From: a virus | Virus record (IMG/VR): IMGVR_UViG_3300007734_000759 | Span: 23,154 to 87,153 of that record | DNA: 64,000 nt | Direction: 5' to 3' (one strand) | Part shown: piece after piece, positions 7,195-41,329 of the stretch | Numbering within the stretch: position 1 is the first letter of the stretch | Layout: each line of letters begins with the position of its first letter | Made by a program: the position numbers and the translations under genes | Notes under the pieces: model-generated | What the model was told of the DNA's origin: nothing | The model's input: only the letters and a program-made list of their open reading frames with translations | The model's database searches: none

Positions 7195-8181
7195 ATGAGT
7201 GCGTTCAAAACATTACTAGCATCTGATTTAATTGTAACCCCTTTTACAGTTAATAAATCACTTTCCTTCACAGGAACAGAGTTTACAAGTTCCGCTGTAG
7301 GAATCGATAAGTATATAGGTAGGTATACAACAGGTACAGAGACGACAGGATTTTTCACAGGAAGTTACCCAGTCTATCAGAAAGCCGTTTATGATTCCGT
7401 AAAGCAACTATATTACTCAAACTATTCAGGATCTAGGTACAATGCCTCAGGATCTTTCGAAAATTACCTCTCATCGACGGTAAACTGGAGTATAGGAGAT
7501 GCTTTCGATACATTTCCAAACACAGGGATCGATAGATACTTTCCATACACACAATCCTACAATGATAGTGTGATAGGGGTCATAACAATTCCTAGAAAAT
7601 TGTACGGAAGTTATATAACACCAAGCTCTTTTGTACTAGACTACAAGGCAATTGTTGTAGGAACGGGATTAGTAAGTGGATCACTTTACGATGATGGGGA
7701 AGGTAATATACTAGCACATCCTCAAGATGTTCATGTAGGAAATATTATATATCAACATGGTATAGTCACTATTACAAATAACATAACAGTAGGAGCACTT
7801 ACTGTTGCCGAATATGGTAAAGGTAGATATGGAACAATTGATCTTTATGGAAGTTCTGCAGGGAACGGGGTATTATTAGTACCAACTATTATCAACAATA
7901 CAAACCTAACCTGCTCTTACCAAGCAAGCACCCAGTTATATGAAACACAAATTAAATGCACGATATCACCTAGCGAATTTAATACTACATTAAATCCAAC
8001 GATATACGAAGGAACAGGATCTATATATGGATTTGCAACAAGTTCTTATTTTGCACCTTACGTAACCACTGTAGGATTATATAACGAAAACCAAGAACTA
8101 CTTGCTGTAGCGAAGCTGGCACAACCTTTACAATCATCAACAACAACCGATACAACAATTCTAGTAAACATAGATCGATGA
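7195..8181 (+). CDS. Virion structural protein, paralog of 6172..7191
   Basis: C-terminus YVTTVGLYNENQELLAVAKLAQPL matches the upstream gene. Confidence 0.5.
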   Translation: MSAFKTLLASDLIVTPFTVNKSLSFTGTEFTSSAVGIDKYIGRYTTGTETTGFFTGSYPVYQKAVYDSVKQLYYSNYSGSRYNASGSFENYLSSTVNWSIGDAFDTFPNTGIDRYFPYTQSYNDSVIGVITIPRKLYGSYITPSSFVLDYKAIVVGTGLVSGSLYDDGEGNILAHPQDVHVGNIIYQHGIVTITNNITVGALTVAEYGKGRYGTIDLYGSSAGNGVLLVPTIINNTNLTCSYQASTQLYETQIKCTISPSEFNTTLNPTIYEGTGSIYGFATSSYFAPYVTTVGLYNENQELLAVAKLAQPLQSSTTTDTTILVNIDR

Positions 8182-8339
8182 ACCTTAGAGAAATAGTACA
8201 GCAGATAGTAGCTGAAAAGATTGCTAAAAAAAGCAACTGCTGCTACAAATGTGGACATATGCATAAAATGGGAACAGCCTGTCCAAAACCAACATACTCC
8301 AAATCAGATCCCAAACATTGCAAAAATAGAAAAAAATAA
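8178..8339 (+). CDS. Small basic Cys/His-rich protein (53 aa; absent from ORF track)
   Basis: MNLREIVQQIVAEKIAKKSNCCYKCGHMHKMGTACPKPTYSKSDPKHCKNRKK; ATGA overlap with the upstream stop; fills the gap exactly. Confidence 0.7.
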   Translation: MNLREIVQQIVAEKIAKKSNCCYKCGHMHKMGTACPKPTYSKSDPKHCKNRKK

Positions 8340-8341
8340 CT

Positions 8342-8800
8342 ATGTGGTTATATAAAGATAAAGAGGTTGCATCAATTGAGGATATGCCTCAAGGTACTAT
8401 AGGTTTTATTTACAAGGTTACTCATAAAACGACAAACAAATCGTATATTGGTAAAAAGGTTTTACAACATACTCTAAAAAAGAAACTTACAAAAAAAGAG
8501 CTTGCTGAATTAACAGGACCAGGCAAGAAACCAACTTTCAAAAGAGTGAGTAAGGAATCCGATTGGAAAACATATTATGGATCTTCTAAACCTCTATTAG
8601 CAGTACTAAAAGAAGAAGGATCTGAAAACTTTACAAGAGAGATTATTAAGTACGTTCATACAAAGAAACAACTAACCTATTTTGAAACCAAGTACCTTTT
8701 CTCATACGGAGTACTAGAATACCCAGATCAATACTTCAATGATAACGTACTAGGTAAGTTTTATACAAAAGATTTGACATCGTTGGAGATTGACGATTAA
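8342..8800 (+). CDS. GIY-YIG endonuclease (Seg/DenA-like, catalytic domain only)
   Basis: GFIYKVTHKTTNKSYIGKK motif, downstream YYGSS and conserved Glu/Asn (FETKY, YFNDN). Confidence 0.75.
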   Translation: MWLYKDKEVASIEDMPQGTIGFIYKVTHKTTNKSYIGKKVLQHTLKKKLTKKELAELTGPGKKPTFKRVSKESDWKTYYGSSKPLLAVLKEEGSENFTREIIKYVHTKKQLTYFETKYLFSYGVLEYPDQYFNDNVLGKFYTKDLTSLEIDD

Positions 8801-8813
8801 TTGTGTATATTAT
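8782..8813 (+). promoter_or_regulatory. Bacteroidota sigmaA-like promoter GTTG-N20-TATATTAT before primase
   Basis: Same 20-nt spacing as the sites at 59804 and 61577; resembles the TTTG/TAnnTTTG consensus. Confidence 0.5.
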
Positions 8814-8816
8814 AGC

Positions 8817-9752
8817 ATGGTTAATCAGGTTTTGATAGGTTTAGTAGATAAAGTACTGGGAACAGGAAAACCCACTGCTCGTAATAATCGAGCATACACT
8901 TGCCCTTTCTGTAATCACCACAAACCTAAGTTTGAAGTTAATTTCACACCAAACGAAAAGAATCAATATCCATACAATTGCTGGGTATGTGGAGTGAAAG
9001 GAAGATCGTTGGTAAACTTATTTAGAAAAGTAAATGCATCAATTGCTCAACTTGAGGAATTAGGTTTACTACTTAAAGTAAAAGTAACAAACGACCAATC
9101 TCAAACTCAAACTCTCAAAATACAATTACCAAAGGAATACAAAGCGTTATCATCGGTTTCTAAAGGAGATATTGTAGCAAGGCATGCAATAAGCTATTTA
9201 AAGAGGAGAGGCCTTAATAAGCATGATATTCACAAGTATAGTATAGGGTATTGCAGCAGTGGTCAATATGCAAATATGATCATTATTCCTTCCTACGACA
9301 ATACTGGAGAATTAAACTACTTCATTGCAAGAAACTTTGATCAAAACTCCCCAGTCAAGTATAAGAATCCACCAATATCAAAAGACATTATTGCATTTGA
9401 GTTATTTGTTAATTGGAATTTACCAATAGTAATTTGCGAAGGAGCATTTGATGCCATAGCAATAAAAAGGAATGTAATTCCACTATTCGGAAAGATTATA
9501 TCAACTACATTAATGAAGAAGCTTGTAACTTCACAGGTAGATAAAATATACATTGCATTAGATAAGGACGCACAAAAGCAAGCACTACAACATTGTCAAC
9601 AACTTCTAGATTTAGGAAAGGAAGTTTACTTGGTTGACATGGAAGACAAAGATCCAAGTGAGATGGGCTTTGAGAATTTTACTAAACTAATTCAAACCAC
9701 TTTGCCGGTAGACTACTACGATCTCATGCAGAGAAAACTCCAAATGATATGA
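8817..9752 (+). CDS. dnaG: DNA primase (Zn finger + TOPRIM)
   Basis: CPFC...CWVC zinc finger; VICEGAFDA and IALDKDA TOPRIM motifs; ATG 8817 preferred over TTG 8790. Confidence 0.85.
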   Translation: MVNQVLIGLVDKVLGTGKPTARNNRAYTCPFCNHHKPKFEVNFTPNEKNQYPYNCWVCGVKGRSLVNLFRKVNASIAQLEELGLLLKVKVTNDQSQTQTLKIQLPKEYKALSSVSKGDIVARHAISYLKRRGLNKHDIHKYSIGYCSSGQYANMIIIPSYDNTGELNYFIARNFDQNSPVKYKNPPISKDIIAFELFVNWNLPIVICEGAFDAIAIKRNVIPLFGKIISTTLMKKLVTSQVDKIYIALDKDAQKQALQHCQQLLDLGKEVYLVDMEDKDPSEMGFENFTKLIQTTLPVDYYDLMQRKLQMI

Positions 9753-10543
9753 GTATAACTAAAGGAATGAATGTTCTAACAGAGCATAAGAAGAAGAAAA
9801 TTAACTTCGATGCTCCGTTGAAGCAAATAAACTTCTTAGACAGGAGAGTTTACAAAAGAGCTGAAGGAGTGTATTATCCATCAGTAACTACCATTCTAAA
9901 CTACATGCCAAAGAATAATTTCTTTATGACATGGTTGAAGGATGTAGGGCATAATGCTGATCTAATCGCAAGGAGAGCAGCTGAGGAAGGTACACAAGTA
10001 CATAAAGCAATTGAAGAGTTAGTAGAAGGGAATGAAATATCTTGGATTGACGATTACGGTAATGCTAAGTATAATGAGAATGTATGGGGAATGATATTGA
10101 AGTTTGCTGAGTTTTGGAATAACCATAAACCTAAATTAATTTCCTCAGAAGAATTTGCGTATTCCGACGAACATCAATTTGCAGGTACAGCAGACTTGGT
10201 AGTTGAAATGGATGGAGAGACTTGGTTACTAGATATTAAGACATCCAACGCATTACATAAGACTTATGACATGCAACTTGCAGCTTATGCAAAAGCACTG
10301 AAGGAAACTAGAAACCTCGAGATACAACGCACAGGAGTAATTTGGTTAAAATCTTCTAAAAGACAGACATCAAATAAACCAGGAGTGTATCAAGGTAAAG
10401 GTTGGGAGATTAAAATAGTAGATGAAATCGAATACAATTTTGACTTATTCCAGACAGTTTACAAACTTTACAAACTAGAAAACCCAACAACAGAACCAAT
10501 TTACAGTTCATATCCTACCACGATTTCTTTATCTTTAGAATAG
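9749..10543 (+). CDS. PD-(D/E)xK phage exonuclease
   Basis: PSVTTIL, GTQVH, FAGTADL, LDIKTS and QLAAYA motifs. Confidence 0.8.
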   Translation: MSITKGMNVLTEHKKKKINFDAPLKQINFLDRRVYKRAEGVYYPSVTTILNYMPKNNFFMTWLKDVGHNADLIARRAAEEGTQVHKAIEELVEGNEISWIDDYGNAKYNENVWGMILKFAEFWNNHKPKLISSEEFAYSDEHQFAGTADLVVEMDGETWLLDIKTSNALHKTYDMQLAAYAKALKETRNLEIQRTGVIWLKSSKRQTSNKPGVYQGKGWEIKIVDEIEYNFDLFQTVYKLYKLENPTTEPIYSSYPTTISLSLE

Positions 10544-10563: not shown

Positions 10564-11526
10564 ATGATTAAGCTATTATCGTTATTTAAGGATGTTATCC
10601 AAGAGGGAGGGAATGTTTTTGGTACAACTGATCGCATTAAAAGAGAAGATATACCACCTACTCTTGATAGGTTTGTAGAAGAATTAGGTAAGATTTTTCC
10701 ACAAAAGAAAAATACTTTTAAATTTCAAACCCTAGGATCTGTAGGACAGAAAGATGAATCAGGAGATATAGACTTAGGATATGATGGTAATAACCTTACG
10801 AAAGACGGAAAAGCTGATTTAGAAGGTTGGAACATCGATCCACAAGAGTTTCAAGAAACTTTTGATCGTATTAGAAAAAGAGTTAGATCGGCAACAGAAG
10901 AACAATCAACTAAACGAGCAATGCTTGAGCTGATTGCAAAACAAGTAATAGAAGCTCCAGGACCAATTAAAGCTGACATGAAAGCGGCAGGTAATGGTTC
11001 ACTATTCTTCGAGTTTCCTCAGTTCGATCCTTCTGGAAACGAATTGGATAAGCATGTACAAATCGACATCAATGTAGGTGATTTAGATTGGCTGAAGTTC
11101 TCGTATTATTCTAAAGGATACACAGGAAATATAAAAGGGTTGCATAGAACACAACTACTAGTAGCTTTGTTTAAAAATAAAGATTTAATTTTCAATCACA
11201 ATCTAGGAGTAAAAGATAAAGAAGGAAATGTATTAGCTAGAAATCCCCAACAAGTTCTAGATTTACTTAATAAAATTTATGGAACTAACATCTCTGAGGA
11301 TATAATTTACGACTACTCAGAGTTAATGGATTACCTACAAGCAAACCTACCTGAATCAGAACTCAATTCAATTTACGATATATACTTAAAAATCCTAGAC
11401 TCAACTAGAGCAGATATACCACAACACTTACAAGATTATTGGATTAAAAACCAAGAAAGGTTAGGCCTTAGAGGTAAGTTTTTACCAGACGATTCGAATC
11501 TAACAAAATATAAAATAGAAGCATGA
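10564..11526 (+). CDS. Pol-beta-superfamily nucleotidyltransferase-like protein with putative capsid-targeting leader
   Basis: LGSVGQKDESGDIDLG motif and third Asp in HVQIDINV; leader MIKLLSLFKDVIQE. Confidence 0.6.
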   Translation: MIKLLSLFKDVIQEGGNVFGTTDRIKREDIPPTLDRFVEELGKIFPQKKNTFKFQTLGSVGQKDESGDIDLGYDGNNLTKDGKADLEGWNIDPQEFQETFDRIRKRVRSATEEQSTKRAMLELIAKQVIEAPGPIKADMKAAGNGSLFFEFPQFDPSGNELDKHVQIDINVGDLDWLKFSYYSKGYTGNIKGLHRTQLLVALFKNKDLIFNHNLGVKDKEGNVLARNPQQVLDLLNKIYGTNISEDIIYDYSELMDYLQANLPESELNSIYDIYLKILDSTRADIPQHLQDYWIKNQERLGLRGKFLPDDSNLTKYKIEA

Positions 11527-13325
11527 GCGGTTCAGCAGGAGGACAAAGAATTTCACGAGCAGCAGTAGAAGCTACGGTCAAGGATTATATCGATAGAGTT
11601 CTTTCTAAATTCAAAGGATTCAAATCAGCAAAAGTATCCGGATCATATAATTACAGCGATAAACAAGACTTTGGCGATCTTGATCTAATTGTCTTTATTG
11701 AAGGAGATGATAAAAAACAAGTAAAAGATGCTCTTGCTAATTATTTACAAAGTCTACCCGATGATGTAATAGTTCCTTTTAAGAGTGAAAAGTACGCAGG
11801 GAAGAAACTTCTCAAACCAGGAGAGCTTGTAACCGTTTTATATCCAATAGCAGGAGTGCCAGGAGAATTTGTACAAATTGATAACATAGTAGCAATCTCA
11901 CAACAGGAAGAGCAGTTTAAACAGACCTTCTTGGATGTACCTGCTGCAACTCAAGGTTTAATTTTAGGACTAGTAAAAGCAGCAACTGTTGAGGAAGATC
12001 CACAACAAATCTTTAAAAGATTAGGAATAACAGATGTACCAACTCCTGAAGAAAATCAAGAATACGATTTCAATTTAAGTGGAGATAAATTATCACTTAG
12101 ATTAGTAACACTGGGAGATGGTTTTAAGGAGTTAGGTAGAGAAGTAGTTTGGACATCTCAAAATTGGAGCGATGTCGAGAAGCTGCTTTCAAATTATGAT
12201 TTAAACGTACCTTTTGAGGATCTACTTAAACAAGTAAAATCTAATCTGTCAACAGAACGAGGTAAGAATAGAGTAAAAGGAATTTTTAGGTCAATGGTTT
12301 CGGTTAAGAGTGGTGAGGTTGGAACTCCAAAAGGAGATGATAAGGAAAAAGCACTTACACAAGTAGCAGCTTTAGAAGGTAAGTATTCACAACTTACATT
12401 AGAATTAATTAAACCTTTCTTAGGTGAGCAAGAAGAATCACCACAATCAATCGCAGTATTTCCAGGAGCATTTAAACCACCTCATAGATCACACTTCGAA
12501 GTTATCCAAAAAGTAGCTCCAATGGTGGATGTTGTGAAAGTATACGTATCTAAGCAGCCAAGAGGAGGAGGGAAAGAGGTAACAATAACGCAAGATCAAG
12601 CATTAAAGGTCTGGGATATATATAAAAATTATCTACCAAACAACGTAGAGATTATACCAGCAACTAATGCAACCCCTGTTTTAGACGCGTATCAGGAGAT
12701 AGAAGCACATCCTAACAATCAATACTTAGCTATCTATGGAAAAGGTGAGGAAGGGCGCTGGAAAGCTGTTGAAAAGGATCGTAACAAGTATGGACATGTT
12801 AAAACTGTAAACTTAGGAGATATTGAGGGAGTATCTGCAACAAAGATTAGAACCTTACTAGCACAAGGAGATGATGCCCAACTTATTGAGTATTTACCTA
12901 GCATAAGTGAAGAAGACGCTTTAGAAGTTTTACACATATTACTTGGTACAGTAAGAGAGTTTGTTACACGTAAGGATTTAGAGGATGTAGAGCAAGTAGC
13001 TGATACAGAATTAGCTCCCGTAGACGTAACATTTGATAGACATTTTACAGATAGAGTAAACGATCCGAGAAACACTCCAGAAATCTCTAAAGAGGAGTTA
13101 ATAGACTTTTTTAAAAAACTAGCCAAGAAGCAGGGAGCTCTTAAATCTCTATTGAATAAAGACAGTGAAGTAGTTGCCAAAGATATGCAAAGAGATTTAA
13201 ACACTCCAATTATCGCTACACAAAAAGATAAATCAGGGGTTAAGCAAATAGCACCTAAAACTATCATGCGTAAGAAAAACTTCAATACTCCAAATAAAAC
13301 TATATTTGTAGAGAAGAAAAAATAA
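11523..13325 (+). CDS. Multidomain protein: Pol-beta-like NTase + HxGH-type nucleotidyltransferase + C-terminal unknown domain
   Basis: SGSYNYSDKQDFGDLDLIV and FVQIDNI; VFPGAFKPPHRSH and GVSATKIR; C-terminal FDRHFTDRVNDPRN domain. Confidence 0.65.
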   Translation: MSGSAGGQRISRAAVEATVKDYIDRVLSKFKGFKSAKVSGSYNYSDKQDFGDLDLIVFIEGDDKKQVKDALANYLQSLPDDVIVPFKSEKYAGKKLLKPGELVTVLYPIAGVPGEFVQIDNIVAISQQEEQFKQTFLDVPAATQGLILGLVKAATVEEDPQQIFKRLGITDVPTPEENQEYDFNLSGDKLSLRLVTLGDGFKELGREVVWTSQNWSDVEKLLSNYDLNVPFEDLLKQVKSNLSTERGKNRVKGIFRSMVSVKSGEVGTPKGDDKEKALTQVAALEGKYSQLTLELIKPFLGEQEESPQSIAVFPGAFKPPHRSHFEVIQKVAPMVDVVKVYVSKQPRGGGKEVTITQDQALKVWDIYKNYLPNNVEIIPATNATPVLDAYQEIEAHPNNQYLAIYGKGEEGRWKAVEKDRNKYGHVKTVNLGDIEGVSATKIRTLLAQGDDAQLIEYLPSISEEDALEVLHILLGTVREFVTRKDLEDVEQVADTELAPVDVTFDRHFTDRVNDPRNTPEISKEELIDFFKKLAKKQGALKSLLNKDSEVVAKDMQRDLNTPIIATQKDKSGVKQIAPKTIMRKKNFNTPNKTIFVEKKK

Positions 13326-17314: not shown

Positions 17315-17683
17315 ATGTTCAAACATCATTTAGCCTCCCTGACAAAACACATGGTAGAATGCGGAATGCCCATTACTCCACTACCATCTGTGCAATTTAT
17401 ACACAACGACGAGGAGAATGCACAAGATATCCTAGGTAGAACAGCATATTACGAACCACAAAGTAAATGCATTGTACTTTACACTAAAGGAAGACATCCT
17501 AAGGATATACTAAGATCTTTTGCACATGAGATGATCCACCACATGCAAAATATAGAAGGAAGATTGAATCACATAGATACAACTAACGTAAACGAAGATC
17601 AAAATTTATATGAACTAGAGTTGGAAGCATACTCAAAAGGTAATATGTTATTTAGAGAGTGGGAAAACTCTTGCAGAGCATGA
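17315..17683 (+). CDS. HExxH zinc-metallopeptidase-like protein
   Basis: LRSFAHEMIHH with downstream ELEAY. Confidence 0.6.
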   Translation: MFKHHLASLTKHMVECGMPITPLPSVQFIHNDEENAQDILGRTAYYEPQSKCIVLYTKGRHPKDILRSFAHEMIHHMQNIEGRLNHIDTTNVNEDQNLYELELEAYSKGNMLFREWENSCRA

Positions 17684-18192
17684 TTAAATTAGAACAACTA
17701 CTAAAAGAAATACAACAACAGGATTATCGTATTTATTGTGATCTTGATGGAGTCTTGAGTAATTTTGACGGTAGATTTAAAGAACTCGTAGGCGATTCGC
17801 CCGACAATTACAAAGATCAATACGGCAAGAAAGCGTTTTGGAGAGCTATAGATGATCAAGGTGAGGAGTTCTGGTCAGGAATGAAACCAATGCCAGATGC
17901 TAAAAAGCTATGGAATTACATAGGCAAGTATAAACCCGAACTACTATCAGCACCATCGAGCAAGCAATATTCACACACAGGTAAACAACTATGGGTAGAT
18001 CAACACCTACCAGGTGTAACTCTGAACCTAAAACCCGCAACTGAGAAGCATTACTACTGCACAGGACCTTATGACATCTTAATAGACGACAGAGCAGACA
18101 CGATTCAAAGATGGAATAATGCAGGTGGTGTAGGAATTCTACATAAAAATGCACAAGATACAATAAACCAACTAGCTGAGCTAGGTTTATGA
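17680..18192 (+). CDS. HAD-family 5'(3')-deoxyribonucleotidase with putative capsid-targeting leader
   Basis: IYCDLDGVL, ELLSAP and ILIDDR motifs; ATG 17680 overlaps the upstream TGA; leader MIKLEQLLKE. Confidence 0.8.
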   Translation: MIKLEQLLKEIQQQDYRIYCDLDGVLSNFDGRFKELVGDSPDNYKDQYGKKAFWRAIDDQGEEFWSGMKPMPDAKKLWNYIGKYKPELLSAPSSKQYSHTGKQLWVDQHLPGVTLNLKPATEKHYYCTGPYDILIDDRADTIQRWNNAGGVGILHKNAQDTINQLAELGL

Positions 18193-18217: not shown

Positions 18218-18616
18218 ATGAAATTACAACATTTTAGAAAATTAATTAGAGAAATGGTTGAAATGGAGCTAGATGAGAAAAGAAAAGCTCCAGACAGAAA
18301 GCTAGAAAAAGACGAACTAGGAAAATTCTTCGTAGTAGTGAAAGTTACCTCAGAGGATTCTGATCCAGTAATGACAGTAAACTTGCTAGATTTTGCTCAC
18401 AAAATTAAGAGTGGTGAAATTCCATTGGAAAAACTTGATAGTGTATTTTCTAAAAGTGGATCTGCTCGTAAAAGGGCTAATGAGATTTTGAAAGTAGTTA
18501 AGGAAGAGAGAGAAGCTTTGGAAGAAGAAATGGAAAAGATCCGCGAATTAAGAAGACAGGAAGAGGAAATGAAAGCATCAGCAAAGTCAAAAGTTAATAA
18601 GTTAAAAGGAGCATAA
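18218..18616 (+). CDS. Hypothetical, putative internal head protein
   Basis: Leader MKLQHFRKLIREMVE; coiled-coil C-terminus. Confidence 0.45.
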   Translation: MKLQHFRKLIREMVEMELDEKRKAPDRKLEKDELGKFFVVVKVTSEDSDPVMTVNLLDFAHKIKSGEIPLEKLDSVFSKSGSARKRANEILKVVKEEREALEEEMEKIRELRRQEEEMKASAKSKVNKLKGA

Positions 18617-32313: not shown

Positions 32314-33177
32314 ATGCTAGGCACATTTAAACACTCGAAATATAAAAACACGGGAATACTTTTCGAGCTACTTGCGAGGCAGATAACAGCTGACACTCTA
32401 TCAGGTAAGTCGACAAAGGCAGTTGATTTGCTAAAAACACACTTTGTAAAATCAGAATTAGGCAAAGAGTACAGGTTATACGAAACGTTAATGAAACAGA
32501 AGTCATTAACAGAGCCAAGAGCTCAGTTGGTTATTGAAACTCTATTAGATGCTTCTAAAAAACTTAATCGTAAAGTATTAAAGCGAGAAAAGTATAATTT
32601 AATTAAGGAAATTAAAAATCACTATAATTTAGAAGAGTTTTTTAAAACAAAACTTCCATATTACAAAACACAAGCCGCTTTTTATATTTTATTAGAGATG
32701 CATAACGCTGAAGAGCCGATCAACCCTTCACAAATTGTCCAAAATAAAATAACAATACTAGAACATTTAACATCTAAAAAAGTTGACGCAAACAAAGTAC
32801 AGTCAGAAGTTTTAGAGGAGTATGAAGGATACGATAAGGATCTACGTATTCTAGCGTACAAAATATTACTTGAGAAGTTTAACGGCAAGTATGCAGACCT
32901 TACAACCAAACAGAAACAAATCCTACAACAATACATTACATCGGTAGATTCACAACCTAAACTTCGTGAATATTACAACGTAGAAATTACTGAAATTAAA
33001 AAACAATTAACTAAAGTTTCAAAGCAGATTTCAAATAAAGTAGTAAAGATTAAAATAGAAGAAGTATTAAAATTTGCTACAGAAGTTGAAAAAACGACAC
33101 AGATTAACGGAGACGATATAGTAAACCTATTACAATTTCACGAACTGCTACACGAAATAAAAAAAGCTAATGGATAA
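32314..33177 (+). CDS. Helical hypothetical protein in head module
   Basis: Between portal and protease; ATG 32314 preferred because it follows the motif. Confidence 0.55.
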   Translation: MLGTFKHSKYKNTGILFELLARQITADTLSGKSTKAVDLLKTHFVKSELGKEYRLYETLMKQKSLTEPRAQLVIETLLDASKKLNRKVLKREKYNLIKEIKNHYNLEEFFKTKLPYYKTQAAFYILLEMHNAEEPINPSQIVQNKITILEHLTSKKVDANKVQSEVLEEYEGYDKDLRILAYKILLEKFNGKYADLTTKQKQILQQYITSVDSQPKLREYYNVEITEIKKQLTKVSKQISNKVVKIKIEEVLKFATEVEKTTQINGDDIVNLLQFHELLHEIKKANG

Positions 33178-33421
33178 AGGTAAACTTAGGGAGATTGTTA
33201 AGAAGATCATAAAAGAAATGTCTGTAACAGGTGGAGGAGTGGCAGGTGCAACTACCACCGCAGGAACAGGAGAAGGTGTAGCTACTAAGTATGCTTTTAA
33301 TCCAAATAGAAAGGCAAAAGGTACATCTCACAATTACTACACGGATAAGTTAGGATTCAAAGAAGCTCCCTCTGGAAGACCAAAGTCAAAAGTTATGGAT
33401 TATAAAGATCTATGGAAGTAA
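33170..33421 (+). CDS. Small putative internal head protein
   Basis: Leader MDKGKLREIVKKIIKE followed by a Gly/Thr-rich basic peptide. Confidence 0.5.
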   Translation: MDKGKLREIVKKIIKEMSVTGGGVAGATTTAGTGEGVATKYAFNPNRKAKGTSHNYYTDKLGFKEAPSGRPKSKVMDYKDLWK

Positions 33422-33436: not shown

Positions 33437-33601
33437 ATGAGAGATCTAGATGAAATATTAAATGAGTTAGAGCAAGCTAAAATGGAAGCACGAACTGCAC
33501 GGCAGCGTGTTAGTGATTTAGTAAGAGAAAGAAGAATAACTCGCAAAAAGACTCGTTTAGTAAACCTATTATACGAACTAATTAAAGAAAAAGCACTATG
33601 A
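33437..33601 (+). CDS. Small basic coiled-coil protein (54 aa; absent from ORF track)
   Basis: MRDLDEILNELEQAKMEARTARQRVSDLVRERRITRKKTRLVNLLYELIKEKAL; preceded by CTATTTATTAGC exactly as at 22257; ATGA overlap. Confidence 0.65.
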   Translation: MRDLDEILNELEQAKMEARTARQRVSDLVRERRITRKKTRLVNLLYELIKEKAL

Positions 33602-34641
33602 CGCTTCAACAACAATACAATTTAATCAAAGAAGGAAAAGGAGATAAAGCATATTTTCTTAAAAATGCTAAGTTTGAATTTCCAAACTTATTTAATGCAT
33701 ACACTTCTTACGAAGACGCAGCCACAATGCTAAAGGCTAAAGGACTGATTACAGAAGGAGTAGGAGGAGTAGTAACAGTTGGAAAAGACCAAGATTGGAT
33801 TGGAATCTTCAAACAAAACATTACAGAAGAAACTAAAGCAGTAGAAAAGAAAACCTCAAAAGAAGTTGAAGATGTGCTAGCTCATAACTACGATTATAAA
33901 GATCAAAAAAACATTGACAACTTAAATGGTCAAGCTTTTCTTCACGGATTCTACACAGAAATGCAAGATCCTAAGAATGAGGATAAAAATACAAACCAAG
34001 TTAAACAAATTGTAGCTAAGAATCTAGCAAAAGATCCACTATACTATACAAAAGATGGAATGTTTGGATTGAAAGGTGTAGGATATACAACAGAAGCTCC
34101 AGGCCTAGGAACACCAAAAGAACCTAAAGGTAGATACAAATCATCTGGATACGGAGACTTGAGAGAAGGTATAGAAAATAAAAAATTAAAACTACAGCGA
34201 ATCGTTAAACAAGGCTTAAAAGGATTAGATCTTTACAGAAACACCTCAAGCGATGGTGAGGAACTTTACTATTACGATGGAGATGTGTTATATAGTGTTA
34301 GGGATGATGGGTCAAAAGGACCTTCTGTTAGAATGAGTTTATTCGATATAACTGGATTGGAAGGAGAAGAACCAGAAAATACGTTCCTAAAACCAGGAGA
34401 AAAGCAAACCTTCAAACCTATACCAAGCCAAGCAGACACAGCAGGAGATAAACTAAGAGCTTCCACAGCCCGCTATAGTAAACTTAAAGAAATTATTCGT
34501 GAACTAGTCTTACAAGAGCTTAACGAAGAAACTCCAGCAGCCGATGCAATAGATAATCAAATCGATACGGTAAAAAAACAGTTAGGAGCTCTTTATACTA
34601 AAAAAGGACAGGAGTTGAGCAAACCAGGAACAGGATCGTAA
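33598..34641 (+). CDS. Modular putative prohead core / internal head protein
   Basis: Repeated LIKE, LITE, ITE, LRE and LNE sites; immediately upstream of the protease. Confidence 0.5.
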   Translation: MTLQQQYNLIKEGKGDKAYFLKNAKFEFPNLFNAYTSYEDAATMLKAKGLITEGVGGVVTVGKDQDWIGIFKQNITEETKAVEKKTSKEVEDVLAHNYDYKDQKNIDNLNGQAFLHGFYTEMQDPKNEDKNTNQVKQIVAKNLAKDPLYYTKDGMFGLKGVGYTTEAPGLGTPKEPKGRYKSSGYGDLREGIENKKLKLQRIVKQGLKGLDLYRNTSSDGEELYYYDGDVLYSVRDDGSKGPSVRMSLFDITGLEGEEPENTFLKPGEKQTFKPIPSQADTAGDKLRASTARYSKLKEIIRELVLQELNEETPAADAIDNQIDTVKKQLGALYTKKGQELSKPGTGS

Positions 34642-34642: not shown

Positions 34643-35269
34643 ATGAGCAAGCAAGTATTAATAGAAACCCAAATCTTTAAACCTAAACCATTAACAATTG
34701 TTGAAGGTGTAGGAGGTACCAAGAACCTTTTGGTAGAGGGTATTCTTGCTACTGCTGAAGTGAAGAATGGCAACGGCCGTTACTATTCAAAAGAGTTGTG
34801 GGATAGAGAGATCGGCAAATACATGGAATTGGTTAGGGAGAGAAGAGCTTGTGGTGAGCTTGATCACCCCGATTCCCAAATTATAAACTTAAAGAACGTA
34901 TCCCACGTTATCACAGATATGTGGTGGGATGGGGATAAGGTAATAGGAAAAATTGAAATCCTACCAACCCCATCAGGAAACATTCTTACATCCTTGTTTG
35001 AAAACAGCATACCAGTAGGAGTATCTTCAAGAGGTATGGGGTCTCTAAAACAAGTAGGAGAAATCATGGAAGTACAAGATGATTTCGAACTCCTATGCTG
35101 GGACTTTGTATCAACACCATCTAACCCAGGATCATACATGGCTCCAGTAGGTAAGATGAGAATGAATGAAGGATTACAAGCTTCACAAGGAAGCACTGAC
35201 AAGTTTGCAAAAGTAAACCAAATCCTCACAGAAATTCTGTGTGCAAACGGTACTTGTCCATTATTTTAA
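34643..35269 (+). CDS. gp21: Prohead core protease (T4 gp21-like)
   Basis: GELDHP, GVSSRGMGS and WDFVSTPS motifs. Confidence 0.92.
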   Translation: MSKQVLIETQIFKPKPLTIVEGVGGTKNLLVEGILATAEVKNGNGRYYSKELWDREIGKYMELVRERRACGELDHPDSQIINLKNVSHVITDMWWDGDKVIGKIEILPTPSGNILTSLFENSIPVGVSSRGMGSLKQVGEIMEVQDDFELLCWDFVSTPSNPGSYMAPVGKMRMNEGLQASQGSTDKFAKVNQILTEILCANGTCPLF

Positions 35270-35484: not shown

Positions 35485-36822
35485 ATGTCAAGAGCATTAT
35501 TAAAAGAAGCAATTGCCGACGCAAAAGCCGTGAAGGAAGCTGCTATTGCAAACGCCAAGGCTGCTCTCGAGGAAGCATTTACACCACACCTGAAGGAACT
35601 TCTTGCTAGCAAACTGGAAAGTTTGGAAGAAGAAGAAATGGAAACTGAAGGAATGGGTAAAGCATCCAAGATGAAAAGAGCCATGGACGAGTATGGGATG
35701 GAGCATCCAGATATCGACATGGACGGCGATGGAGATGTTGACGCAGACGACGTCGCATTGATGAAGGAAATTGATCTCGATGAAATCTTAGCTGAATTAG
35801 ACGGCTTAGATGAAAAGAAGATCAAAACAGCTCGTCAAACAGACAACCGCGATGCGGAGGAAGAGGATAATCCATTTGATAAAGGTAGAACCAAACATCA
35901 ACCAATGGATGAAGCCAAGAAATCAGATGATTCTGAAGAAGAAGCAGATGATGAAGAATTTAACATGGATAACATTGAAAAAGCAATCAGAAAAGTCATC
36001 GACGATATGGTTGAAGCTGGTGAACTGGAAGCAGGAGAAGGCGAATCAAGAGAAGATGAGGATTCAATGAAAGACTTGGAAGATGATGCCATGGGTGAAG
36101 AAGATGAAGAGATTGACTTACAAGAGCTTATTAGAGAGATGAAAAAAGAAGAACAAATGCGTGAATATGTTGAAGGCGGACCTTCTTCTGAAAATGCTCT
36201 GTTGAAAGCCGTTGATGCTGCTCTTGAAAAGGGTGGTGAATTAGCTAAAAAACTATTGAAGCTACTAGCTAGTGGTGGTGGTGGTTGGCAAAGAGGTGGT
36301 ATGTATGAAGAGGACTTGAACGAATACGTTGAAGGTGGTCCTTCTTCTGAAAACGCTCTACTAAAGGCTGTTGATGCTGCTCTTGAAAAGGGTGGAGAAT
36401 TGGCTAAAAAGCTAATGGCACTACTTGCTCAAGGTGGTGGTGGTTGGGATCAAGGAGGTATTTATGAAGATGAGCTTAACGAAGCTTACTCTACCATTAA
36501 AACTCTCCGCTCTGAACTTAATGAAGTAAACTTGCTAAACGCTAAGTTGCTTTATACCAACAAAATCTTCAAAGCTAAAAACTTGACTGAAGGTCAAAAG
36601 GTAAAGGTTTTATCAACATTTGATAAAGCTACAACTGTAAAAGAAGTTAAATTGGTATTTGAATCACTAAGTACATCAATTGCTGCTTCTAACAGCACAG
36701 TTAAAGCTCCAATCAAAGAATCAATGGGCTTTGCATCTAAAGCTTCAGGCGTAGTTAAAAACAATCAAACGATTGAAACAGACGCTGTGATCGCTCGCAT
36801 GAAAAAGCTCGCAGGACTATAA
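35485..36822 (+). CDS. Prohead scaffold/core protein
   Basis: Highly acidic, between protease and capsid genes, ends IARMKKLAGL. Confidence 0.75.
   Translation: MSRALLKEAIADAKAVKEAAIANAKAALEEAFTPHLKELLASKLESLEEEEMETEGMGKASKMKRAMDEYGMEHPDIDMDGDGDVDADDVALMKEIDLDEILAELDGLDEKKIKTARQTDNRDAEEEDNPFDKGRTKHQPMDEAKKSDDSEEEADDEEFNMDNIEKAIRKVIDDMVEAGELEAGEGESREDEDSMKDLEDDAMGEEDEEIDLQELIREMKKEEQMREYVEGGPSSENALLKAVDAALEKGGELAKKLLKLLASGGGGWQRGGMYEEDLNEYVEGGPSSENALLKAVDAALEKGGELAKKLMALLAQGGGGWDQGGIYEDELNEAYSTIKTLRSELNEVNLLNAKLLYTNKIFKAKNLTEGQKVKVLSTFDKATTVKEVKLVFESLSTSIAASNSTVKAPIKESMGFASKASGVVKNNQTIETDAVIARMKKLAGL
36163..36480 (+). repeat. Two tandem 159-bp (53-aa) repeats within the scaffold
   Basis: EYVEGGPSSENALLKAVDAALEKGGELAKKL...GGGGW occurs at 36163 and 36322. 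Confidence 0.95.
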
Positions 36823-36853: not shown

Positions 36854-38563
36854 ATGAGCACAATTCAATCATTACTTGAATCAGCTAATCCTTGGAGAAA
36901 CGTACAATCTGACGCTGCAAGATTAGCAACCAAGTGGGCTAAAACTGGCTTGCTTGAAGGCCTAGATGGCGAAATCAATCGTAACAACATGGCTATGATG
37001 CTTGAAAACCAAGCTAAGCAACTTGTTGTTGAATCTTCAACTTCTGGTGGTGGTACCGCAGGTGGTACCTTTACTGCAGGTGTAGGTGAACAGTGGGCTG
37101 GTGTAGCTCTTCCATTGGTACGTAAGGTGTTTGGACAGATCGCTTCTAAGGAGTTCGTTTCTGTTCAACCTATGAACTTGCCATCTGGACTAGTATTCTT
37201 CTTGGATTTCCAATATGGAACTAACAAAAACCCATTCTCTAGCGCAGCAGGAGCCAACTCAGTATTCGGTGGAACTTCAACCCCAGGATCTTCTGCAGGA
37301 TATCCTTTCTCTACCAACAATGCAACCAACGGTTTGTACGGAGCTGGTCGTTACACCTACTCTACTAACTTGACTGGATCTCTATTGGCACAAGCAGCTG
37401 CTACCAACTTAGGTATCACAACTGCATCTGCTACTTGGGCTTCTTTCAACTTCGATGCTGATTTTACATCATCTTTTGGTACTTTTGACGTATACACTCT
37501 TACAAATGCTTCTACCAAACTAGTAAACATGGATAAAGAAGCAGTACGCAGCTTCTACATTTCTGGTTCATACACTGGTGCAACTAAAGCAGGTATCGCA
37601 TTGCCAGCATTCACAACTTATAATGCTACTACTGACGCTTTGTCCTTCATTGTAACTAAGTCAGCTTTCACAGGAGCTACTCCTCTAGCACCTACAGCAT
37701 TTACAGGTTCTTTCATCATCTCCTACTCAATGCAGCCTACTGACAATAAGAGAGGTGATTTTGAAGATACAAACACTACATTGAACCAAGCTTACAACAA
37801 CCCAATTTCTATTCCAGAAATCAACGTTCAGATGCAATCTCAAGCGATCGTTGCTAAAACTAAGAAATTGAAAGCTGTATGGACTCCTGAATTTGCTCAA
37901 GATTTGAACGCTTACCAAAACATTGATGCTGAAGCTGAATTGACTTCAATGATGTCTGAGTACGTTTCTCTTGAGATTGATTTGGAAATCCTAGATATGT
38001 TGATTCAAGATGCTGCTGCTGGTACTGAGTTCTGGTCTGCCGTTAACAACGTAGCTTACGACGGAACAGCTCTTACCACTCTTACCTCTGGTTTCTACAA
38101 CACTCAAGGTCAATGGTTCGCAACTCTTGGTACTAAAGTTCAAAAGCTTTCTAACAAGATTCACCAATTGACTCTTCGTGGTGGTGCTAACTTCTTGGTA
38201 ATGTCTCCAACAGTATCTACTATCTTGGAATCAATTCCTGGATTCGCTGCTGATGTGAACGGTCAAACTGAGAAAATGAACTATGCTTTCGGAGTACAGA
38301 AAGTAGGTCAATTGAACGGTCGCTATAAGGTTTATAAGAACCCATACATGACTGAAAACACAATCTTGGTTGGTTTCCGTGGTTCTCAGTTCTTGGAAAC
38401 TGGTGCTGTATTTGCTCCTTACATTCCATTAATTATGACTCCTCTTGTGTACGATCCAAACACCTTCACTCCACGTAAAGGTCTATTGACTCGCTACGCT
38501 AAGAAGATGTTGCGTCCTGAGTACTATGGTAAGATCTACGTATCTGGCTTAACTACTATCTAA
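36854..38563 (+). CDS. gp23: Major capsid protein (T4 gp23-like)
   Basis: FVSVQPMNLPSGLVFFLDF, KLKAVWTPEFAQDLNAY, APYIPL and FTPRKGLLTRYAKK motifs. Confidence 0.95.
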   Translation: MSTIQSLLESANPWRNVQSDAARLATKWAKTGLLEGLDGEINRNNMAMMLENQAKQLVVESSTSGGGTAGGTFTAGVGEQWAGVALPLVRKVFGQIASKEFVSVQPMNLPSGLVFFLDFQYGTNKNPFSSAAGANSVFGGTSTPGSSAGYPFSTNNATNGLYGAGRYTYSTNLTGSLLAQAAATNLGITTASATWASFNFDADFTSSFGTFDVYTLTNASTKLVNMDKEAVRSFYISGSYTGATKAGIALPAFTTYNATTDALSFIVTKSAFTGATPLAPTAFTGSFIISYSMQPTDNKRGDFEDTNTTLNQAYNNPISIPEINVQMQSQAIVAKTKKLKAVWTPEFAQDLNAYQNIDAEAELTSMMSEYVSLEIDLEILDMLIQDAAAGTEFWSAVNNVAYDGTALTTLTSGFYNTQGQWFATLGTKVQKLSNKIHQLTLRGGANFLVMSPTVSTILESIPGFAADVNGQTEKMNYAFGVQKVGQLNGRYKVYKNPYMTENTILVGFRGSQFLETGAVFAPYIPLIMTPLVYDPNTFTPRKGLLTRYAKKMLRPEYYGKIYVSGLTTI

Positions 38564-38611: not shown

Positions 38612-38615
38612 GTTG

Positions 38616-38624: not shown

Positions 38625-38654
38625 TTAGAGTTACGATAATTAAATAACGTTTCA

Positions 38655-39341
38655 ATGACATCAAATCACCACACTGATCCAATCTTCGCTGAGAAGAGAA
38701 GACCTAAGAATCCAATTAAGTTCAAAATGAACTTAAACGACGAGCAGAAGATAGCAAAAGAGATCATCCTTCAAACCCCAATCACACTTCTCAAAGGAAT
38801 GGCAGGTTCAGGTAAAACACTTCTCGCATGTCAGATAGCATTAGATATGTTATTTAAAAAAGATACAGAGAAGATTGTAATTACAAGACCGACTGTAGCA
38901 AGAGAAGAGATAGGATTTCTGCCAGGAGATATCAAAGAAAAACTTGATCCGTGGCTAGCTCCAATCTATGCAAACCTATACTTACTATACGATAAGGAGA
39001 AAGTTGATAAGATGATAGCAGATGGAACTATTGAGATCGTTCCATTTGCGTTTATGAGAGGTCGAACGTTCCCAAACAATGTAGTTATCGTCGATGAGTG
39101 TCAAAACATTACACACGCGCAAACAGAACTTGTTTTAGGGCGTTTAGGAAAAGGAGGGAAAATGATCTTTTGTGGAGATTTATCCCAAACAGACTTAAAG
39201 AATAAGAAAGATAGTGGTATTGGATTTTTTAATAGACTTGAGGAAAATATTAGAGGAGTAAAAGTAATAACCTTAAAGACAAACCACAGACATGAAATAG
39301 TAGAGCCTATCTTAAAAGTATACGAAGATTATCGAGACTAA
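38655..39341 (+). CDS. phoH: PhoH-family ATPase
   Basis: GMAGSGKT, FMRGRTF, DECQN and GDLSQTD motifs. Confidence 0.93.
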   Translation: MTSNHHTDPIFAEKRRPKNPIKFKMNLNDEQKIAKEIILQTPITLLKGMAGSGKTLLACQIALDMLFKKDTEKIVITRPTVAREEIGFLPGDIKEKLDPWLAPIYANLYLLYDKEKVDKMIADGTIEIVPFAFMRGRTFPNNVVIVDECQNITHAQTELVLGRLGKGGKMIFCGDLSQTDLKNKKDSGIGFFNRLEENIRGVKVITLKTNHRHEIVEPILKVYEDYRD

Positions 39342-39344
39342 TTG

Positions 39345-39353
39345 ATATTTATA
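39345..39353 (+). promoter_or_regulatory. ATATTTATA putative late-promoter motif
   Basis: GATATTTATAACTAAAA upstream of ATG 39363. Confidence 0.6.
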
Positions 39354-39362
39354 ACTAAAAAC

Positions 39363-39815
39363 ATGGCTAACTTAACTATACTGATTAATGAAAAGCTAAC
39401 CTTAGACGGTAATGATAGAGGTATACTAACTACTCAAGTGGTGTCAAATGTAAATAACATAGACAATAGAGTAGTAACTTGTCCCACAAGCTCTATCACT
39501 GAACTATTTAGTATGACAGACTCAGACCAATCATACGCAGCGTTTAAAACAGGAAGCTTTAGATACGGTAGAGTAACAAATAGATCTGAACTTCCCATAA
39601 AATTACAGGTTACTACTTACAACAGTAAGACGAGTACCGAAGCTTTTGCAAATTATATAGTAAGCGGAGGTTATTCTTTTATGATATCATCTCCAGTAGG
39701 TACAGGAAGTGCAGTACCAATAAATACTTTCGTATTCAACGACTACATCTCATCAATAGGAGTAGAACCCACAGGATCTGCAGCAGTTATCGAATACTTT
39801 ATAGCAACAACTTAA
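39363..39815 (+). CDS. Hypothetical virion protein
   Basis: Beta-rich; ATG 39363 preferred over TTG 39342. Confidence 0.45.
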   Translation: MANLTILINEKLTLDGNDRGILTTQVVSNVNNIDNRVVTCPTSSITELFSMTDSDQSYAAFKTGSFRYGRVTNRSELPIKLQVTTYNSKTSTEAFANYIVSGGYSFMISSPVGTGSAVPINTFVFNDYISSIGVEPTGSAAVIEYFIATT

Positions 39816-39826
39816 TTTAAAATACA

Positions 39827-40972
39827 ATGTCAAGTGTATCAATTTGGGCAGGATCCAGCACATTTATTCCAGGAATGACTCCTTTTGGTTTCTACGATTA
39901 CGATGTAGATTTCCAAAAAGATGCAGATAGAGTAGCAAAATTCTGTGCTCAACGCTTAGGATATCCGTTAGTTGATATTGAACTACAAGATATTAATTTT
40001 TATACAGCATTCGAGGAAGCTATCACAACCTATGGTAATGAAATGTATGCTTTTAAAGTTAGAGAAAATTATCTATCCTTAGAAGGAGCTAGCAATCTTC
40101 CAACTTTAAATGATAAAACCATAACACCTAACATGGGAGTAGTGATCCGACAATCAGATCAATATGGAACTGAAGCAGGAGTAGGAGGTAGTGTAACATG
40201 GAGATCAGGATCTTTGGATCTACAAGCAGGACAACAGCAGTATGATTTAACTATCTGGGCATCAGCATCAGGGATTCAAGCAGGGGATTTGGAAGTTAAA
40301 AGAGTATTTTTTGAAGAAGCACCTGCAATTGTACGATACTTCGATCCTTATGCAGGTACTGGTACCGACATACAAGCACTAATGGATACTTTCGACTTTG
40401 GTAATTACTCACCAGGTATTAACTTCATGTTAATGCCTATTAATTACGATCTCCAAAAGATACAAGCAATCGAGTTTAATGACCAGGTAAGAAAATCAAA
40501 TTATAGCTTTGAATTAATAAATAACCAGTTAAGAGTGTTTCCAATTCCAGAAAGACCTAAAAAACTACTATTTCAATACATATTAAAATCTGATAGGGTT
40601 AGTGGAAGCATATCACAAGGAAATAATTTAGTAACAGACATCTCAAACGTTCCTTACACAAATCCACAATACTTAATAATAAACTCAGTAGGAAGACAGT
40701 GGATATTTGAATACACACTAGCTCTTTGTAAAGAAATGTTAGGATATATTAGAGGAAAATATGGTCCCATCCCGATTCCAGGAGCAGAGGTAACTCTAAA
40801 CCAATCCGACCTACTTAGCGCTGCAACAGCAGAAAAAACAGCACTAATTGAAAGATTAAGAACCTACTTAGAGGATACATCTAGGAAAGCTTTACTAGAA
40901 CGTCGAAAAGACGAAGCAGAATTTAGAAGAACTGAGCTTGGAAATGTGCCGTTTACTATTTATATTGGATAA
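39827..40972 (+). CDS. Neck/head-tail adaptor (T4 gp13-like)
   Basis: RLGYPLVDIEL near the N-terminus; WIFEYTLALCKEMLGYIRGKY...PGAEVTLN. Confidence 0.8.
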   Translation: MSSVSIWAGSSTFIPGMTPFGFYDYDVDFQKDADRVAKFCAQRLGYPLVDIELQDINFYTAFEEAITTYGNEMYAFKVRENYLSLEGASNLPTLNDKTITPNMGVVIRQSDQYGTEAGVGGSVTWRSGSLDLQAGQQQYDLTIWASASGIQAGDLEVKRVFFEEAPAIVRYFDPYAGTGTDIQALMDTFDFGNYSPGINFMLMPINYDLQKIQAIEFNDQVRKSNYSFELINNQLRVFPIPERPKKLLFQYILKSDRVSGSISQGNNLVTDISNVPYTNPQYLIINSVGRQWIFEYTLALCKEMLGYIRGKYGPIPIPGAEVTLNQSDLLSAATAEKTALIERLRTYLEDTSRKALLERRKDEAEFRRTELGNVPFTIYIG

Positions 40973-40975
40973 GAT

Positions 40976-41329
40976 ATGATTAGCTTAGTAGAATTAACAA
41001 AAGATGCACAAAGTTTGAACAAAATGTTCAAGGTGCAGGTCATACTTGTCACTGATAGAAAGCATAATAAAACTGAAATTATCAATGAGCTTAGAGGAGT
41101 AGAGGGAGTTGTTTATATAAAAGTACGCCAAAACCAAAACATAATCGATAGAGGAGATGATAATAGCGAATACACTCTTCTAGAAATCAAATACATGGCT
41201 ACAAAAAACACTCCAATAGCAGCAATCAAAGCTATTAAACTAAAGGCTACTAAAGGTGATGAGGAGCAAAAACGTATTTTAGGCCTCCGTAGTATGTATA
41301 TTATTGAAAGGAGCGTAGTAGAAGTATAA
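40976..41329 (+). CDS. Hypothetical protein
   Basis: 117 aa between neck genes; leader MISLVELTKD. Confidence 0.45.
   Translation: MISLVELTKDAQSLNKMFKVQVILVTDRKHNKTEIINELRGVEGVVYIKVRQNQNIIDRGDDNSEYTLLEIKYMATKNTPIAAIKAIKLKATKGDEEQKRILGLRSMYIIERSVVEV

Follow-up and report, generated by a model that had tools for sequence, protein, structure and literature searches.

A candidate T4-type capsid-targeting and propeptide system on head proteins and accessory enzymes of a T4-like phage

The window analysed here is a stretch of 64,000 nucleotides from a virus (IMG/VR record IMGVR_UViG_3300007734_000759), corresponding to positions 23154-87153 of one 159,435-bp contig, the ~159-kb genome of a T4-like phage. 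We describe a set of short N-terminal leaders ending in a hydrophobic residue, any residue and Glu (h-x-E), which occur on both the head proteins and the accessory enzymes of this phage. The GC (guanine plus cytosine) content of the window is ~36%, and almost every gene lies on the plus strand. No Shine-Dalgarno sequences were found at the phage genes, the signal peptides in the window are Bacteroidota-like in appearance, and the host is of the Flavobacteria type. The phage has thousands of metagenomic relatives. A megablast search with the head module found no match among cultured phages, and tblastn was required to detect the closest ones, namely Flavobacterium phage vB_FspM_immuto (hereafter immuto), Microcystis phage Mel-JY01 and Rhodothermus phage RM378, with capsid protein identities of 57%, 49% and 35%, respectively.

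The window contains a T4-type head module, with a large terminase, a gp20 portal, a gp21-family S77 protease, a scaffold in the position of gp22 and a gp23 capsid protein. The order of portal, core open reading frames (ORFs), protease, scaffold and capsid genes is that of T4 genes 20-67-68-21-22-23. The relevant features are as follows (a slash marks the predicted cleavage point, and h a hydrophobic residue):

30378-32279, plus strand: portal protein, gp20 family (PF07230), without leader
33170-33421, plus strand: small prohead-core-like protein in the gp67/gp68 position, in the gap between portal and protease; leader ..IVKKIIKE/MSVTGGG at 33170-33217
33437-33601, plus strand: 54-aa ORF in a prohead-core position; leader MRDLDEILNE at 33437-33466
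33598-34641, plus strand: 347-aa core/cargo protein; leader ..QYNLIKE/GKG at 33598-33633
34643-35269, plus strand: prohead protease, gp21/S77 family (PF03420); N-terminal MSKQVLIE/T at 34643-34666
35485-36822, plus strand: scaffold protein in the gp22 position; N-terminal MSRALLKE/A at 35485-35508
36854-38563, plus strand: major capsid protein, gp23 family (PF07068 from residue 79)
36854-37033, plus strand: capsid propeptide, ~60 aa; sites SLLE9, GLLE35, MMLE51 and LVVE60

Judged by its sequence, the protease is a genuine gp21-type protease. It matches PF03420 with 103 bits (cut-off 27 bits) and phrog_207 with 3e-55, and shares 30% identity with T4 gp21 from end to end (E = 1e-23). Specifically, its GELDHP and GVSSRG segments align to GELNHP and GVSSRG of T4, retaining the catalytic His and Ser; in the inactivated T4 structure 5JBL, Ala stands at exactly these two positions. 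The QVLIE/T of its own leader, which is kept in 79 orthologs, aligns with QLLIE/T of T4 gp21, where LIE-9 is said to fit the gp21 cleavage logo (PMC9026906).

Predicted sites are also conserved in the other head proteins. About 80 related loci keep MKQhLIE/TQ in the protease, IQSLhE/SANPW in the capsid protein, hLKE/hSATGTG in the core protein and QYNLIKE/GKG in the counterpart of 33598. In the capsid propeptide, E9, E35, E51 and E60 are invariant among 30 homologs, and LVVE60 lies immediately ahead of the stretch equivalent to the mature N-terminus of T4 gp23; the capsid leader, SLLE, is hydrophobic at P3 only (residues are numbered back from the Glu at P1). The scaffold ranks 5th of 192 proteins in h-x-E density, and its N-terminus M.R.hLKE/AIA is kept in ~60 relatives. 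Orthologs of 33170 keep hLKE/[IM]SATGTG while the part upstream varies. The leader of 33598 is kept in 73 distinct orthologs, with hh-x-E in 92% of them, and 33598 has a second site, KAKGLITE/G, at residue 52. In the portal family, hh-x-E is found at 0% of N-termini.

Residues ~227-333 of the scaffold (36163-36480) are an internal tandem duplication of ~53 residues (YVEGGPSSENALLKAVDAALEKGGELAKKL.. twice), with h-x-E sites at its bounds. The immuto scaffold, gp067 (L098 25626-26867), carries the GenBank label 'DNA polymerase phi-like protein' and is a scaffold by position, N-terminus and C-terminal motif. Downstream of the capsid gene, the next gene encodes a PhoH-like ATPase (38655-39341) with a conserved N-terminal IFKE/KRKPKNP (here PIFAE/KRRPKNP), followed by an ORF (39363-39815) with a conserved LINE/K; these two proteins may also be protease substrates.

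In total, about 15-20 otherwise unrelated proteins begin with an amphipathic leader of 7-16 residues. Those outside the head module include the following, listed with one leader candidate that we reject:

8178-8339, plus strand: 53-aa ORF; leader MNLREIVQQIVAE at 8178-8216
9749-10543, plus strand: PD-(D/E)XK exonuclease (PF12705); conserved N-terminal hh-x-E, ..NVLTE/HKKKK
10564-11526, plus strand: Pol-beta-fold nucleotidyltransferase-like protein; leader MIKLLSLFKDVIQE/GGNVFG at 10564-10605
17680-18192, plus strand: NT5C-type 5'-nucleotidase (PF06941); leader MIKLEQLLKE at 17680-17709 (internal ATG chosen)
18218-18616, plus strand: 132-aa ORF with TATTTAT upstream; leader MKLQHFRKLIRE at 18218-18253
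21219-22250, plus strand: ORF with ..DKFLKE (internal ATG chosen), listed in an earlier sequence-only reading; probable false positive
22269-22925, plus strand: 218-aa Cys-rich protein; leader MKLIDILKE at 22269-22295
23493-24278, plus strand: 261-aa basic protein; leader MTNLTDILKE at 23493-23522
24280-24969, plus strand: Mn/Fe superoxide dismutase (SOD) with a 24-residue N-terminal extension; leader MITLLEILKE at 24280-24309
25843-27363, plus strand: 506-aa protein with a HELVH motif and a GTG start; leader (V->M)KKLILE at 25843-25863

The leaders share one register: P7, P4 and P3 are hydrophobic, P2 is in most cases Lys, and P1 is Glu. In T4, the capsid-targeting sequence (CTS) of IPI, IPII and IPIII and the propeptides of Alt and gp24 are removed by gp21 (Mullaney and Black 1996; PMC9026906, PMC5694885, PMC3012670). 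In IPIII, targeting depends on residues 4 and 7 (P7 and P4) and processing on residues 8 and 10 (P3 and P1) (PMC9026906). Because P7, P4, P3 and P1 coincide with these mapped determinants, the register is the same as that of the T4 CTS; for P4, P3 and P1 the agreement is built into the motif definition used below. In T4, Asp at P1 prevents processing and leaves targeting intact. The sequence-only reading had proposed T4-type targeting from such leaders, all of which are present in the sequence at the starts that it quoted.

The leader pattern was tested blind on mechanically called genes, taken from the first ATG, as the motif hh-x-E (P4 and P3 each I, L, V, M or F; P2 unrestricted; P1 a Glu within residues 7-15). 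In the whole 159-kb genome, 33 of 224 proteins carry the motif, compared with 5.1% of internal 9-residue windows (p = 5e-8), and shuffling of residues 2-20 gives an expectation of 11.5+-3.2 matches (z = 6.7-7.0). When Asp, Lys, Gln, Asn, Arg, Ser or Thr is substituted for Glu in the motif, the same test gives no excess. The enrichment of leaders expected by the sequence-only reading is thus confirmed, and it is specific to Glu. It persists when start codons are chosen by an alternative rule (z 5.4) and when the head module is left out (z 5.5), and z is 3.6 for the genes outside the region 8178-41329 covered by that reading; matches are concentrated within this region, with 14/43 against 19/181 elsewhere (odds ratio 4.1, p = 0.001). 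An alignment of the leaders anchored at the Glu has L at -6, [LI] at -3, [IL] at -2 and Lys at -1. Among 50 leader-bearing proteins, similarity beyond the leader is found in one pair only.

The same script applied to immuto finds the motif in 29 of 218 proteins against 4.9% of internal windows (p = 1.3e-6, z 5.3), and its leaders are of the types seen in this phage. For calibration, T4 (150 kb, similar GC content) has 24 of 234 (z 3.0), and these matches include IPII, IPIII, gp24, gp21, gp22, gp68 and Alt. The excess over chance is ~21 proteins here, ~17 in immuto and ~10 in T4; because the T4 matches include known gp21 substrates, the T4 excess approximates the count of those substrates. The T4 control also turned up gp61.1, an uncharacterised 54-aa protein (L102 18966-19130) that begins with the CTS-like MKTFKEFIKE.

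The motif could in principle be unconnected with the capsid and represent an ordinary amphipathic helix at the N-terminus, arising from AT-rich codon usage, from initiation preferences in Shine-Dalgarno-less Bacteroidota or from helix-capping. N-termini are enriched in Lys, Ile, Leu and Gln, and ~11 of the 33 motif-positive proteins (about a third) are expected by chance, which would suit such an origin; the sole cross-genome baseline is the set of T4 non-substrate proteins. However, the signal vanishes on shuffling, Glu alone is enriched, and the excess in T4 fits its known substrates at a similar GC content. In addition, N-terminal sites differ from internal ones: in the two phages, P7 is hydrophobic in 59-61% of N-terminal hh-x-E sites against 35-38% of internal ones, and P2 is Lys in 37% against 12%. 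The motif also stands at internal domain junctions, and the SOD leader is missing from cellular SODs, as described below. Pure composition is ruled out as the cause by the shuffles and the other-residue controls, and we consider an ordinary helix quite improbable.

In the SOD, the leader precedes the enzyme domain as an addition. Pfam Sod_Fe_N begins at residue 25, and in dozens of solved bacterial SODs the counterparts of residues 25-26 are residues 2-3; the leader is an add-on relative to cellular SODs. Phage orthologs retain it, and a 26%-identical SOD in contig L015 has its own KKLIDLVE. The sequence-only reading had asked whether alignment with homologs would show the leader to be a phage-specific addition. 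Two genes upstream of the SOD lies a ferritin-like (Dps-type) gene (22936-23493), whose product has its Pfam domain from residue 31, with QMNE and SNE in the 30-residue N-terminal extension. By analogy, a ferritin beside a tagged SOD recalls typical encapsulin cargo.

Other orthologs generally retain the leader pattern while the sequence drifts. Orthologs of the nucleotidase mostly have a leader of the same pattern and other sequence (LVDLIE, LLDLFE, DLLLE), and one has no leader. A PDB sequence search with the nucleotidase gave no match, so that its add-on status rests on the leaderless ortholog and on fusion junctions. In the family of 10564, the leader with an invariant E14 is present in 118 homologs. 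The AlphaFold2 model of 10564 has an overall predicted local distance difference test score (pLDDT) of 85, with residues 1-16 below 50, so the leader is predicted to be detached from the fold. Foldseek matches the model to DNA polymerase beta/lambda (E ~3e-5), in support of the nucleotidyltransferase label given by the sequence-only reading. Orthologs of 22269 begin with MNNIKKIIKE, MDLKQLIRE or MNKLKQLISE, and others begin at the Cys motif with LMLNE/ ~18 residues in. Orthologs of 23493 have MDLRKLVKE/VLNEQKAKRDRCLRI (L001) and ..IENIIKE/ILSEKKADRCLRI (immuto). Orthologs of 25843 start with ATG and read MKKLISE, MKRLISE and MSKLLTE; the family has only 3 homologs. The peptidase label of this protein has behind it an HExxH at residue 167 and a match to Peptidase_M91 below threshold (E = 0.069), and Pfam, PHROGs and atlas searches gave no further support. 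For 18218 and 8178, the ortholog search recovered none.

Two assignments of the sequence-only reading are reversed. It had counted 21219 among the tagged proteins, which we reject, as its orthologs read FFKK, FLKQ, FIRK and FLNK, and the Glu is not conserved. Conversely, it had taken the exonuclease as untagged, and the orthologs of 9749 have VLNE, VLSE, RILE, RLLE and RVIE.

If shared leaders were footprints of recombination cassettes, in which a promoter and a 5' coding end shuffle among genes, similarity should extend into the upstream DNA. Promoter-stem-loop cassettes have been described in T4-type phages, and ACTATTTATTAGC stands immediately before the ATG of both 22269 and 33437. Moreover, TATTTAT, a late-type promoter motif with 9.5-fold enrichment ahead of genes, the portal, tube and tape-measure genes among them, is ~3-fold associated with leader genes (p = 0.004-0.02); this association also fits a T4-type targeting system. 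Against a cassette origin, similarity in the upstream 50 nucleotides is no higher among leader genes than among others (p = 0.98), synonymous codons are mixed at P4, P3 and P1, and leaders also lie inside ORFs, remote from promoters. We therefore reject this explanation, which we regard as very improbable. Another motif ahead of genes, GTATCTTTAAG, shows ~10-fold enrichment and is limited to the regions on either side of the structural block (for example, upstream of window 10564 and 78775, and at genome 932-6258 and 128000-159000), and is probably an early or middle promoter; it shows no association with leader genes.

Leaders inside ORFs are seen in several relatives, in which NMNAT-like, 17315-like, nucleotidase and SOD modules are fused in ORFs of 430-1600 aa. 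At 14 of 14 junctions, an h-x-E lies no more than 25 residues ahead of the core of the following domain (background 0.39, p = 2e-6), with the qualification that homologous junctions in this test are not fully independent. In these fusions, KVMNE/ or GFIKE/ precedes the nucleotidase domain, and the SOD has cut-type sites on both sides, with a conserved EERLxEEEhLxE/ after the domain. The window itself contains one such site:

12417-12428, plus strand: internal FLGE302/ site in ORF 11523-13325, just ahead of an NMNAT/cytidylyltransferase-like domain (phrog_3041, E = 4.5e-9)

The segment of ORF 11523 that includes this site, ELIKPFLGE/QEESPQSIAVFPGAFKPPH, is equal to the N-terminal leader MNQLVESLVKPFLTE/DQ.. 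of a free-standing homolog in relative L010. A leader used equally as a linker matches what a cleavage site predicts. The longest of the fused ORFs, of 1000-1600 aa (L008 3071-6832, L010 1485-5405, L011 8213-13021 and L012 6044-9088), combine NMNAT-like, 17315-like, SOD and nucleotidase modules with uncharacterised ones, and look like polyproteins.

Two further leader classes are present, one of which the sequence-only reading had missed. They are defined by the following features:

36778-36819, plus strand: C-terminal peptide of the scaffold, ..TDAVIARMKKLAGL-COOH, template of the class-2 leader
63610-63999, plus strand: ORF with a class-3 leader, MNNFDLRRYLIE/NKLTRNS, running off the window (287 aa in the genome)

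The class-2 leader is a copy of the invariant C-terminal peptide of the scaffold with a predicted cut site after it. The C-terminus of the scaffold reads ..ARMKKLAGL here, [FV]ARMQ[RKQ]LAG[LI][RK]K-COOH in ~60 relatives, and ..WQKLAGIIK, ..ERMKKLAGIVK and ..ERIKRLAGL in immuto, Mel-JY01 and RM378, respectively. The corresponding 13-residue motif, N-[DE]-x-F-x-R-M-Q-[KR]-L-A-G-[LI], begins at residue 11 of three unrelated proteins elsewhere in the genome, and the full class-2 leader is N-[DE]-x-F-x-R-M-Q-K-L-A-G-[LI]-I-T-E/. A six-frame search of the genome with the strict motif gave 4 occurrences only, the scaffold tail and the 3 N-terminal leaders. Among 1,975 pooled proteins, 80 copies of the motif lie at scaffold C-termini, 20 at the N-termini of proteins 82-383 aa long and 4 at internal positions, and all 24 non-scaffold copies have [LIV][IL][TKN]E directly after. 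The second site of 33598 is class-2-like. A tblastn search among cultured records with the class-2 leader found the immuto phages only. The natural reading is that class-2 cargo would use the docking peptide of the scaffold and would then be cut free.

The class-3 leader, FDL[KR][KR][FY]L[VI]E/NKLT.NS, is shared by window 63610 and four immuto proteins (MENFDLKKFLVE/NKLT.NS). In immuto, the predicted tagged proteins include the NT5C nucleotidase gp087, the MKKQILSEQFRRMQKLAGIITE/S proteins, the MENFDLKKFLVE proteins, the capsid protein and the protease.

Two regions outside these subjects are recorded here. A 426-aa ORF at window 59869-61149, with the N-terminus MFWLVE/TKEQ, corresponds to the split N-terminal part of the family-A DNA polymerase of immuto, which is divided over two genes, gp001 and gp199. 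GroES- and GroEL-like chaperonins are encoded at genome 105859-107790, outside the window, and likewise in immuto.

Motif statistics, protease identity, conservation, the add-on status of leaders, the fusion junctions and the identity of scaffold tail and class-2 leader are observed. The leaders probably constitute a capsid-targeting and propeptide system of the T4 type, enlarged and diversified. Late in infection, a leader would dock its protein onto the scaffolding core; after closure of the shell, the protease would cut behind the Glu and free the mature protein within the head. In relatives, modules strung as polyproteins would be cut at equivalent sites, and the class-2 tag would exploit whichever prohead partner binds the scaffold tail, most likely the capsid protein. 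That the proteins dock, are cleaved, stay in the virion and enter along with the DNA is what we infer from these observations. The T4-type targeting proposed by the sequence-only reading is partly supported and held in everything that it predicted for the sequence, apart from the probable false positive 21219 and the tagged exonuclease. Its enzyme toolkit is borne out in part: the SOD, the NT5C nucleotidase, the Pol-beta-fold nucleotidyltransferase and the NMNAT-like module are the only enzymes identifiable among the tagged proteins, and profile searches gave most of the others no functional assignment.

Several points weigh against such a system. The leaders match the T4 CTS MKTYQEFIAE in length and pattern, with no apparent sequence similarity, the peptide being too short and divergent for alignment statistics. 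Single assignments, such as 21219, the exonuclease and PhoH, are uncertain because about a third of the matches are expected by chance. About one in four members of the 10564 family has Thr at P3. The class-2 partner is putative, and a complex prediction of the full-length capsid precursor with the C-terminal 70 aa of the scaffold gave no verdict and speaks for neither side. The expectation of a basic cargo, drawn from the T4 internal proteins and not from Alt, finds no support: the mature parts of the tagged proteins (median length 201 aa) do not differ in net charge from other proteins (p = 0.55). Finally, packaging a nucleotidase or an exonuclease beside the genome has no obvious rationale.

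Some of these points would suit a different outcome: the leaders would truly be cut by the prohead protease and dock onto the core, yet the tagged proteins would not reach the host as effectors. Their role might lie in the head during its assembly, where SOD and ferritin, for example, could protect the DNA; alternatively, they might fill the core or, like T4 gp22, gp67 and gp68, be degraded and expelled. Several tagged proteins hold many internal h-x-E sites, the SOD ranking 12th in density, and T4 gp67 and gp68 are cut into fragments that mostly leave the head (PMC9026906). Likewise, the mature parts are not basic, DNA-associated proteins. On the other hand, the catalytic domains of the SOD, the NT5C nucleotidase and the Pol-beta fold are fully conserved, which would argue for activity after processing, and T4 Alt, internal proteins and CTS-fused reporters are ejected into the host (PMC9026906). 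Taken together, we judge these non-effector fates unlikely.

A wider reading, which we advance tentatively as a possibility somewhat short of even, is that far-T4 phages of Bacteroidota, and possibly those of cyanobacteria and Rhodothermus, have a modular cargo system with two addresses, the T4-CTS-like helix and the N-terminal scaffold-tail copy with its protease site, by which tagged modules are loaded, trimmed and delivered with the DNA. If so, these phages would inject a large, fast-evolving set of enzymes (SOD, nucleotidase, Pol-beta-like nucleotidyltransferase, NMNAT-like), perhaps for counter-defence or to guard the incoming genome. If the tags work, abundant uncultured aquatic T4-like phages would deliver a broad, exchangeable enzyme set at infection, and "hypothetical" and auxiliary genes in such phages would be read differently. 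The identity of scaffold tail and class-2 leader points to a concrete docking peptide, and engineered phage capsids would gain in the class-2 tag a second, orthogonal means of protein delivery. Because immuto is cultured (on Flavobacterium sp. LMO8) and shows the matching pattern, the question can be addressed now. A literature search found no paper on a CTS in this clade, on these enzymes in this role or on a CTS as a scaffold-tail copy.

For protein cargo in phage heads, the T4 CTS is the textbook example and, to our knowledge, is known for only a handful of T-even proteins. The leaders described here resemble it in being N-terminal, 7-20 residues long and present on unrelated proteins, with hydrophobic P7, P4 and P3 and Glu at P1, and in occurring alongside a homologous S77 protease, portal and capsid protein. 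T4 also offers precedents: Alt is an enzyme carried as cargo, and the tag by itself suffices to load foreign proteins. By contrast, the excess of tagged proteins here is about twice that of T4, and the T4 internal proteins are small and basic, whereas the cargo here would include a SOD, a nucleotidase, a Pol-beta-fold nucleotidyltransferase and an NMNAT-like module. Moreover, the leaders here also link polyprotein-like fusions in relatives, fall into several classes and are known from sequence alone. A review has proposed that the CTS is perhaps a general loading route for T4-like phages (PMC9026906).

In the giant phages phiKZ, 201phi2-1 and SPN3US, whose inner-head and ejection proteins have propeptides, a gp21-related protease also cuts after Glu in a short motif, and many head proteins are processed, some at several sites (PMC5694885, PMC9026906). 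Their motif is A/S/G-x-E and their propeptides are mostly >100 residues long, whereas the leaders here are hydrophobic-x-E and of T4-like length.

The class-2 leader has a parallel in SaPI1 CpmB, which copies the C-terminal capsid-binding residues of the scaffold of phage 80alpha; the scaffold of P22 has a C-terminal coat-binding domain. In CpmB and in the class-2 leaders alike, a non-scaffold protein with a copy of the scaffold C-terminal peptide would gain the procapsid interior. Unlike in CpmB, the copy here is N-terminal or internal, is followed by a protease site and stands on many unrelated proteins of the phage itself. CpmB is a size-redirection protein of a parasite, and capsid binding here is putative.

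Virion packaging of a SOD is known from chlorovirus PBCV-1, whose late-expressed Cu/Zn SOD is packaged in the virion (PMC7019647). That enzyme belongs to an unrelated SOD family of a eukaryotic virus and has no known cleavable targeting leader. Encapsulins use C-terminal tags that are not removed, and their shells are without DNA, portal or protease. The likeness to encapsulins is a functional analogy only: there, too, a short terminal peptide sends enzymes (ferritin-like proteins and peroxidases) into a shell of HK97 fold, and the tagged SOD of this phage adjoins a ferritin-like gene.

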